This document shows positions 33,001-36,000 of a stretch of DNA of 64,000 nt, one piece after another. Within the stretch, counting starts at the first letter, position 1, and every line of letters starts with the position of its first letter. Position numbers: made by a program. Source of the DNA: Escherichia coli (GTDB lineage: Bacteria > Pseudomonadota > Gammaproteobacteria > Enterobacterales > Enterobacteriaceae); NCBI RefSeq assembly GCF_017348835.2, contig NZ_CP071375.1; one strand, 5' to 3'.

Positions 33001-36000
33001 CCATTGTCAGTACCAACGAAGGAATCGACAGCATAATGTCCATGATGCGCATGATGATGGCGTCTGCGCGTCCGCCAAGCACACCGGATAGACATCCGAG
33101 TAGCGAACCAATCATACCCGCAATGGCAACCACGACTAATCCGGCGAGAATTGATTGCTGACTGCCGACCAGTACGCGGCTAAACAGATCGCGTCCCACT
33201 TCATCGGTGCCAAACCAGTGCGCCGCAGAAGGCGGCAAAAGGCGGGCGGTTAAATCAATGGCGTTGGGATCATGCGTCGCCAGCCACGGTGAAAAAATCA
33301 TCATCAGTAGCATTAATACAATGATGACTGCGCCGGTCACGGTGAGCGGACTGCCTTTCAGCATCCATACCAGTTTTGCACCGTTAAATCGCGTTTGTTT
33401 TTGTGGGCGTACGGCGGACGTTTCCTCGCTTAGCATCATTCACCACCTCCACGTCCGATACGCGGATCAATCCACAAATAGAGCAAATCCACCACCAGGT
33501 TGACCAGCACATAAGCAAATGAAACCACGACGGCAAAGCCCATCACTGCCGGGAAGTCGAGCGCCTGTATTGATGTTACTACCCATGCACCCATTCCGGG
33601 CCAGGCAAAAACGGTTTCGGTGAGCACTGCGCCATACAACAAATCGCCCAGCGCCAGCCCCAATACGGTAATCGATGGGATCAACGCATTGGGTAGCGCA
33701 TAACATAGAACGATATACCAGCCGGGCAAGCCGCTGGCCCGGGCGGTACGAATGTAGTCTTCATTCAATTGTTCCAGCATCGCTGAGCGGATCTGGCGGG
33801 CGACAATCCCCAGGTGAACAAACGCCAGCGTTAATGCCGGTAAGATGAGATGTTGCAACGCATTGAAGAAGACTTCACCGTTGCCTTCAAGCAACGCATC
33901 GAGCAGATAAAAGCCGGTAACGTGCGTTGGCGGATCCAGCCAGTCATCAAGCCTTCCGCCGCCGGGAAGAATTTGCAGATGACCATAAAACAGCACAATG
34001 ACGCCCAGCCCAAGCCAGAACGCAGGTGTGGAGATTCCGGTAATGGCCATTATTCGCACCAGATGATCCAGCCAGCGATTTCGCCAGACTGCAGAGAGTA
34101 TGCCCAGTGGGATGCCAATCAGGAGTGCCAGCAGCAGGGCACAAAAAGCCAGTTCCAGCGTCGCCGGGAAAAATATGCGCAACTCTTCCAGCACCGGACG
34201 CCCGGTACGAATGGATGTCCCCAGGTCACCATGAAACAGATCGCTGACGTAGCGGTAAAACTGTACGTACAGTGGCTGGTCCAGCCCCAGTTGCTGGCGA
34301 ATATTTTCCACGATAGCATCGCTGGCGCGGTCACCTGCCAATAACCGCGCCGGATCGCCGGGGATCAGATGCGAGATAATAAACGTAATCACACAGACCC
34401 CCGCCATCACGAGCACCAGCCCCCAACAGCGTTGGCGTAAAATACTCCAGAAGGTCACGTTATTTACTCATGGTATTGATATTGAAGACCTGTTCCAGCA
34501 TGGGATTGAACACAAAGCCTTTCACCTCTTTGTTCATCGCCAGTTGGTAGTTTTTCTGGAACAGGTACACATAAGCAGCGTCATCAATGACGATTTTCTG
34601 TGCCTGCTGGTAGTTCCGGGTACGCTGCGTCTGGTCAGTGGTCGCGAGCGCATTGCGCAGTAACTTATCGACCTCACTGTTTTCATAGAACGAGCGGTTA
34701 CCCGGCAGACCTTTTTTGTCGGACTCAAACCAGTAATTCATAAACATATACGGGTCGGCAAAATCCGGACTCCAGTTGCCAATCGCAATGTCGTAATCAC
34801 CTTTACCCACTCTGTCGCGCATGGTGGCGTTCGCCAGCTTTTCCAGCTTCACATTGATGCCCAGCTTGTTGAGACTGGATTGTGTCGCCAGAGCAATAGG
34901 CTCCCAGTTCGGATCGTTATCGGAGTAGAGAAACGTCAGGCTGGTGGGTTTGCTCGTCACTTTATCCCATTCGGCTTTGGCTTTCGTTTCGTCATGGTTG
35001 TATTGCATTGCCGTCGCATCGTAGCCCCACATGCCTTCCGGAATCGGGCCGCGCATTTGTTTTCCGTTACCACTCAGAATGCCGTTAACCATACCCTGAT
35101 AATCGGTAGACCAGGAAATGGCCCGCCGCAGATCCGCCTGATTAAGTGGCGCTTTGCTGTTATTCAGATACAGATAGGTGACGCGCAGTGACGGATACTC
35201 TGCCACATTGACTTTATTTTCCTGCTTCAGGGCGTTGAGTTGATCCACCGGCAGCGCATCGGCAATGTCAATGTCGCCACGGGAGAGCTGCAGGCGACGG
35301 GAGGCACTTTCACCGATAATTTTTACCGATACTCGCTTAAAGTTCGGTTTATTGCCGGAGTAATGCGGATTTGGCACCAGAACTAATTGCTGACCTTTTT
35401 GCTAGCTTTTCAGCATAAACGGTCCGGAGCCAGCGGTATTTTGCGCGAGGAAACCACGGGCATCATCCGCCGCATGTTCCTTTAACACCGCCGGATTGAT
35501 AATGGATGCACCGTCATTCGCCAGCGTGTAGAGGAACGGTGCAAATGGCTGGCTAAGGGTAAACTTCACCGTATGTTCGTCGGGAGCATCAATCTTTAAA
35601 TCTTTGGGAAATGCTTCTGCTGGCCCCTGGCCGATTTTTAGTAACCGCTCAAAAGAGAGTTTTACTGCTTCGGCAGTGACAGGTGTGCCATCGGCAAATT
35701 TAGCATTGTCCTTCAGGGTGAACGTCCACTCTTTTTGATCGTCAGACGCTTTCCAGCTACTTGCCAGATCGCCTTCAACGTCGGTTGAGCCTTTATCACC
35801 GTCCGTTATGTACTGAACCAGCCGCTGATAAGACGGGTAGGTCACTGTCCAGTCGTTATTATCTATTGTTACCGCCGGGTCGAGGTTTTGTGGATCGGCG
35901 GCCTTACCAATCACCAGCATATCTTTCGGTACGGCGGCGTGCGCAACCGGGAAAGTTGTGGCAAGGACGAGCGCGAGCAATGTGGGACGAAACGATATCG

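Follow-up and report, generated by a model that had tools for sequence, protein, structure and literature searches.

A premature amber codon at Trp203 interrupts ddpA in a pig-associated clone of Escherichia coli

The ddpA gene encodes the binding protein of the DdpABCDF D-Ala-D-Ala ATP-binding cassette (ABC) importer. We examined it in a 64,000-nucleotide stretch of Escherichia coli DNA (contig NZ_CP071375.1 of assembly GCF_017348835.2), hereafter the window, where its reading frame is broken at codon 203 by a TAG in place of TGG (Trp). We put at about 0.9 the probability that it is a true nonsense mutation, passed on by vertical descent, which inactivates ddpA. The gene in the window is a pseudogene of the SBP_bac_5 binding-protein family and not a working member of it. 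It is an amber mutation of textbook type, RefSeq already lists this pseudogene in two sister strains, and nothing about it departs from known kinds.

The affected codon occupies 35402..35404, which read CTA on the plus strand and hence TAG on the minus (coding) strand. Translation of 36010..34460 on the minus strand gave a frame of 517 codons in which codon 203 is the sole internal stop and codon 517 the normal one, the context of the former being ...GSGPFMLKS-stop-QKGQQLVLVPNPHYSGNKPN.... The pieces of ddpA on either side of the TAG appear as two open reading frames (ORFs) in the same frame, one at 35402..36148 (annotated ATG at 36010) and the other at 34460..35377 (GTG start, 305 aa). An initial annotation of the window had described an amber codon at this position, in a single frame, in this peptide context and at 'codon 203 of about 517', all of which the translation and the ORF list reproduced exactly. 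Its further proposals, that a TGG (Trp) had become TAG and that the binding protein is truncated, were also borne out. Codon 203 is TGG in the ddpA genes of K-12 MG1655, 7/2 and CFSAN018748, all 1551 nt long like that of the window, and the stop falls in the middle of the protein's only Pfam domain.

The altered base is 35403, coding position 608, a G to A transition on the coding strand (C to T on the plus strand). TGG was found at codon 203 in every intact ddpA allele inspected, and alignment to the closest solved structures paired Trp203 with a Trp in the PDB homologues 5u4o and 6ofq. With the Trp restored, DdpA matched Pfam SBP_bac_5 (PF00496) over aa 78-433 (E = 1.3e-101). At the nucleotide level the gene is 96.7-100% identical to the ddpA genes of 4264 complete genomes and it is syntenic within ddpXABCDF, as expected of a ddpA orthologue, but the stop leaves it without an uninterrupted frame for the whole protein.

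Translation would end after 202 residues, within the SBP_bac_5 fold, and would thus leave no functional binding protein. Binding proteins of this type have a two-lobed fold, which a 202-residue product cannot form. From this truncation we infer the loss of DdpA function. The 305-aa remnant starts at a GTG at 35377 (codon 212), which has no motif resembling a Shine-Dalgarno (SD) sequence upstream, and carries no signal peptide. It should therefore yield no periplasmic protein. Re-initiation past the stop was considered as a route to function and rejected, as the ~60 codons that follow offer no in-frame start preceded by a convincing SD and the remnant lacks a signal peptide.

We searched 5426 complete E. 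coli genomes for ddpA and found it in 4280. Essentially identical alleles occurred only in PE164 (no differences over 1551 nt) and F2_81 (one difference), independent complete genomes from a pig in China and a pig in Australia, respectively. Both have TAG at codon 203. Their RefSeq pseudogenes, LZG51_RS12310 in PE164 and CPH39_RS11960 in F2_81, thus represent the same mutation on the same allele, and the Prokaryotic Genome Annotation Pipeline (PGAP) labels both 'internal stop'. Comparison of the full 64 kb with PE164 showed four single-nucleotide polymorphisms (SNPs) and one 2-nt indel (99.99% identity), and these few differences make the window a third genome of this clone. The sisters differ from the window in other respects. 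In F2_81 the 3' end of ddpX, a gene intact in the window, is shorter by ~148 bp, and in PE164 gadB contains two extra nucleotides relative to the window. This insertion (+TA at 44569/44570, in the ORF at 44187..45656 on the minus strand) leaves gadB annotated as frameshifted in PE164, whilst its frame is open in the window; it is either an assembly error in PE164 or a true strain difference.

The lesion was also found beyond the complete genomes. The exact 202-aa product is on record on 19 contigs and was read by index on at least 24, and the exact 202-aa and 305-aa products occur on 19-24 further contigs from NCBI, ENA and the Logan assemblies. In the Logan assemblies DRR634103 and SRR31541392 the TAG at codon 203 was read directly. 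It is a young mutation, restricted to a single pig-associated clone that comprises the window, PE164, F2_81 and ~20 further public contigs. An intact ddpX and ddpBCDF, as seen in the window, are what a young mutation leads one to expect. The TAG is also a handy clonal marker, tying the source strain of the window to the pig isolates PE164 and F2_81.

Stops at codon 203 are not unique to this clone. A first count with a 61-mer (two genomes) depended on allele background, as the 61-mer spans variable sites 579, 582 and 591, and it missed strain A1. It was replaced by a 60-mer around codon 203 that is free of known variable sites, applied to 4222 complete genomes. The TAG version matched exactly in three of the 4222 (PE164, F2_81 and A1) and the TGA version in two of ~4222 (PCP06021 and mip270_04), whilst the remaining genomes had one or more mismatches. 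Strain A1, which came from an echidna, and SRR32729849 have TAG on an allele 33 nt from that of the window. Their nearest informative sites, 591 and 652, differ on both sides of the codon, which argues against a recombined tract in common with the window. TGA is found on a K-12-like allele (PCP06021, mip270_04) and on an S6P-type allele (ERR3985159, GCA_005383805.1). The stops in A1, PCP06021, mip270_04, GCA_005383805.1 and ERR3985159 all produce the 202 + 305 aa split seen in the window, and the cases in complete genomes are all annotated 'internal stop'. They lie, however, on backgrounds 25-37 nt from the window's allele and some are TGA rather than TAG, indicating separate mutational events at codon 203. 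The initial annotation had held that its reading would fall if orthologues also carry a stop here. Some do, as TAG in A1 and TGA in PCP06021 and mip270_04 show, but these are independent pseudogenes; with stops in five of ~4222 genomes, they give no sign that a stop here is the normal state.

Both of the single G to A transitions possible in TGG create a stop, making Trp codons easy targets for nonsense mutation. In line with this, products of the K-12 allele background truncated at each of its ten Trp codons were all present in public data, on 33 contigs for codon 54, 25 for codon 86, 43 for codon 95, 280 for codon 203, 40 for codon 300, 35 for codon 328, 6 for codon 348, 16 for codon 369, 10 for codon 413 and 8 for codon 427, although some of these may be partial products at contig ends and the counts reflect clonal sampling, not numbers of events. 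Nonsense mutation at the Trp codons of ddpA is thus commonplace and its recurrence at codon 203 need not be exceptional. The higher count at codon 203 is suggestive of a hot spot without being evidence of one. Codon 203 falls within a loop of 16 nt between the arms of an inverted repeat of 6 bp, TGCTGA...TCAGCA (35415..35410 and 35393..35388, minus strand), and the change from TGG to TAG turns GCTGGC into the perfect palindrome GCTAGC. A Dcm hot spot was dismissed on inspection, the site being GCCAGC/GCTGGC and not CCWGG.

Several other explanations of the TAG were weighed. A sequencing or assembly error hiding a true TGG, a way out which the initial annotation had allowed, is conceivable for any single-base difference, and the gadB indel means that at least one of the PE164 and window assemblies contains small errors unless the indel is real. 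The same base was nevertheless read in PE164, F2_81 and the separate runs DRR634103 and SRR31541392, and the exact truncated product on the further contigs, whilst the great majority of orthologues have a sense codon. This excludes an error as anything but a vanishingly improbable account. The other way out was an amber suppressor tRNA (of the supE, supF, supD or supP type, or phage-borne), which would restore full-length DdpA and make the gene functional. No tRNA gene lies in the 64-kb window, and PE164 was used as a proxy for the source genome at five classical loci (glnV/X, glnU/W, tyrT/V, serU and leuX). The search for supE-type alleles, a check proposed in the initial annotation, was run on PE164 and returned wild-type glutamine tRNA genes. 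In its metT-leuW-glnUW-metU-glnVX cluster, ARAGORN assigned the anticodon CTG to glnV and glnX and TTG to glnU and glnW; supE and supB are therefore absent from PE164. Among complete genomes, supE44 had 155 exact matches, and those among the 60 matches listed were all K-12 laboratory derivatives or looked like them. The supF allele was found in none, supD only in DSM 498 (not PE164 or F2_81), and no full-length supP allele was present, the seven supP records at ≥99% being taken to be partial matches as they equal in number the seven with <80% coverage. No tRNA with a CUA anticodon was thus found in the PE164 proxy, and the supF, supD and supP alleles are missing from both PE164 and F2_81. The existence of supE in 155 complete genomes and the intact state of ddpX and ddpBCDF in the window might speak for suppression. 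Intact neighbours are, however, equally expected of a young mutation in a clone that varies by a few SNPs per 10-60 kb, and the partial ddpX deletion in F2_81 suggests that the operon is no longer maintained. With PE164 wild type at all four glutamine genes and 99.99% identical to the window, suppression is disfavoured and we regard it as very unlikely.

Recurrence of stops at exactly codon 203 in several lineages could also be taken as a sign of programmed recoding, with the UAG decoded in a pyrrolysine-like manner or by programmed read-through, or of two halves working as separate proteins. The stop is not conserved across orthologues, though, as ~4217 of the 4222 complete genomes with this segment lack either stop 60-mer and the intact alleles inspected have TGG. 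Moreover, the recurrent stops comprise both TAG and TGA, lie on differing alleles and occur in operons that are damaged elsewhere too. The C-terminal ORF, without an SD or signal peptide, could not reach the periplasm, and E. coli is not known to have pyrrolysine machinery. Recoding is scarcely credible on these grounds. A different proposal, that loss of ddpA is selected (convergent inactivation) or that codon 203 is a mutational hot spot, is compatible with a nonsense mutation and would add a cause for its recurrence. It draws on at least three to four independent hits at the codon (TAG in the clone, TAG in A1 and SRR32729849, TGA on K-12-like and S6P-type alleles), on the 280 contigs with truncation at Trp203 against 6-43 for the other nine Trp codons, and on the position of the codon in the loop of the inverted repeat. 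All ten truncations are nevertheless found in one allele background, the contig counts are those of clonal sampling, and codon 203 came under scrutiny because the window has a stop there, an ascertainment bias. The inverted repeat has a stem of just 6 bp, no known hot-spot motif (Dcm CCWGG) is present, and 58 of 60 sampled genomes keep the full-length span, so the gene is usually kept where it is present. We consider this addition doubtful. That codon 203 is a true hot spot, or that DdpA loss has been selected repeatedly in animal-associated and environmental E. coli, seems improbable; if it were so, the amber codon would be one case of convergent inactivation and not of random decay. The repeated independent knock-out of Trp203 is otherwise a mildly interesting by-product.

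An inherited nonsense mutation inactivating ddpA thus remains our preferred explanation, and some points weigh against it. That DdpA protein is lost, and that ddpBCDF suffer polarity, is deduced from the DNA. The suppressor evidence comes from five loci and a proxy strain, PE164, in which supE was read. Finally, low-level natural read-through of UAG by near-cognate tRNA-Gln may give a little protein with Gln at position 203.

The effect of the mutation may extend beyond ddpA itself. The ddpXABCDF genes form one operon, induced by nitrogen depletion from an NtrC-activated sigma-54 (RpoN) promoter upstream of ddpX (PMC8743547). Even in the wild type its mRNA falls off steeply from 5' to 3', ddpX being induced 104-fold and ddpF 2.2-fold (PMC8743547). 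In the window, the sequence TGGCAT-N5-CTGCA at 36665..36650 agrees with the published NtrC/RpoN-dependent ddpX promoter, and the promoter region, in keeping with the regulation described there, seems undamaged in this strain. A scan of 33400..37000 for sigma-70-like promoters found none, a scan that is uninformative for a sigma-54 promoter. Further upstream of the ddpX promoter, at ~36725..36753 on the minus strand, are repeated TGCAC motifs which could be NtrC sites.

Each neighbour of ddpA (ddpX, ddpB, ddpC, ddpD and ddpF) keeps its full length and differs from its K-12 counterpart at 1-4 aa (Table 1). DdpX is said, from work by Lessard and Walsh in 1998-1999, to be a VanX-like D-Ala-D-Ala dipeptidase. 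The ddpC, ddpD and ddpF genes each overlap the preceding gene. At the junction of ddpA and ddpB, which reads TAA-c-GTG, no SD is recognisable, and ddpB is probably translationally coupled to ddpA. The stop in ddpA likely lowers expression of ddpBCDF, a polar effect which the initial annotation had raised as a possibility. With the ddpB GTG 1 nt after the ddpA stop and no SD of its own, a single promoter and 942 nt of ribosome-free RNA, such polarity is probable. Ribosomes would halt 942 nt before ddpB, and lost coupling together with Rho-dependent termination would reduce ddpBCDF. Stretches with more C than G at ddpA nt ~1013-1155 are possible Rho loading sites. The arrangement, with a premature stop 942 nt upstream of a tightly coupled gene in a single-promoter operon, is like that of classical polar amber mutations in E. 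coli operons. There polarity acts through lost coupling and Rho termination, whereas here it is a prediction.

Table 1. Features of the ddp locus in the window (positions are those of the 64,000-nt stretch).
Feature	Coordinates	Strand	Basis and remarks
ddpA pseudogene, periplasmic D,D-dipeptide binding protein	34460..36010	-	516 codons + stop, broken at codon 203; translation, 97.7% identity to K-12 b1487, PGAP, Pfam
Premature amber TAG, codon 203	35402..35404	-	Translation; alignment to K-12 and homologues
202 still-translatable codons (signal peptide and N-terminal part, ending ...GSGPFMLKS)	35405..36010	-	Translation; exact product on public contigs
~942 nt of ddpA untranslated past the stop	34460..35401	-	ORF list; inspection of starts and SD
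ddpX, D-Ala-D-Ala dipeptidase, intact, 193 aa	36024..36605	-	K-12 length, 2 aa differences
ddpB, permease, intact	33436..34458	-	GTG start 1 nt past ddpA TAA, no evident SD
ddpC, intact	32543..33439	-	K-12 length, no internal stop
ddpD, intact	31560..32546	-	K-12 length, no internal stop
ddpF, intact	30641..31567	-	K-12 length, no internal stop
Candidate sigma-54 promoter TGGCAT-N5-CTGCA	36650..36665	-	~45 nt upstream of ddpX ATG; read by eye

The ddp locus is lost or damaged in many other E. coli. The ddpA gene is absent from 1146 of the 5426 complete genomes (21%), and, being missing from a fifth of them, it is dispensable. Among 60 evenly spaced matching genomes, the 1551-nt span is complete in 58, whilst of the other two one lacks 13 nt and one is reduced to a 102-nt remnant. 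A frameshift was confirmed in the ddpA of GDSC2227PM and several further entries span 1549 nt. Operons with a stop at codon 203 often have a second lesion. As well as the ddpX deletion in F2_81, a shortened ddpX is present on the Logan contig SRR31541392 (called as 148 aa against 193), A1 has a frameshifted ddpC, and PCP06021 has a deletion that fuses truncated dosP and ddpX genes. Loss of part of ddpX in F2_81 and SRR31541392 is expected once the operon is no longer useful. Taken together, a likely course of events is that the G to A change at 35403 turned the Trp203 codon of ddpA into TAG and that the other ddp genes remain whole in the window, whilst in one sister strain a part of ddpX is gone already. 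This would fit with recurrent loss or breakage of the non-essential ddp locus across the species.

Compared with the ddpA of K-12 MG1655 (b1487, formerly yddS), the gene of the window has the same length, Pfam domain and gene order (dosCP-ddpX-ddpA-ddpB-ddpC-ddpD-ddpF). It differs at 35 nt, which include the TAG at codon 203 and give the six substitutions N19T, T42N, K68I, P218S, I386N and D466N. The surroundings also differ, as an extra island of ~6.8 kb (23859..30604) lies between ddpF and osmC in the window and is absent from K-12, where ddpF directly follows osmC. This block has genes for a 3-hydroxybutyrate dehydrogenase, a GntP permease, a 3-hydroxyacyl-CoA dehydrogenase, a thiolase and CoA-transferase subunits A and B, with a divergent LysR regulator. 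A literature search for ddpA as a pseudogene found nothing relevant; DDPA is also the name of a different enzyme.

The strain probably cannot import D-Ala-D-Ala via Ddp, a salvage route of nitrogen starvation and stationary phase. The consequence is small, the Ddp route being dispensable. An annotation of the window should join the two ORFs into a single feature marked as a pseudogene, the treatment that RefSeq already gives this gene in the sister strains.

Other features of the window and of PE164 were also noted. A porin gene of the OmpC family at 11736..12835 (minus strand), flanked by leucine-rich repeat (LRR) effector genes and yddG, is broken into two ORFs (102 aa and 238 aa); PE164 has the identical sequence, with the annotation 'porin OmpC, frameshifted'. 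The type III secretion system (T3SS) effector gene espR1, with leucine-rich repeats, is found at 8991..10244 (minus strand). Beside it, at 10307..11572 (minus strand), is a 421-aa ORF for which the PE164 annotation has only a 288-nt 'partial LRR' pseudogene. Elsewhere the PE164 chromosome has nleA and nleG, which suggest that the clone is of the attaching-and-effacing type. At 18848..19410 (minus strand), a complete toxin gene of the RelE/ParE family lies directly upstream of yddM, a HigA-family antitoxin gene. In PE164 the ddp region is oriented as in K-12, whereas cdd, sucA and asnB-glnV-ubiF lie in regions whose orientation is opposite to that in K-12. These mixed orientations indicate a large inversion around the terminus region, relative either to K-12 or to the rest of the PE164 assembly.

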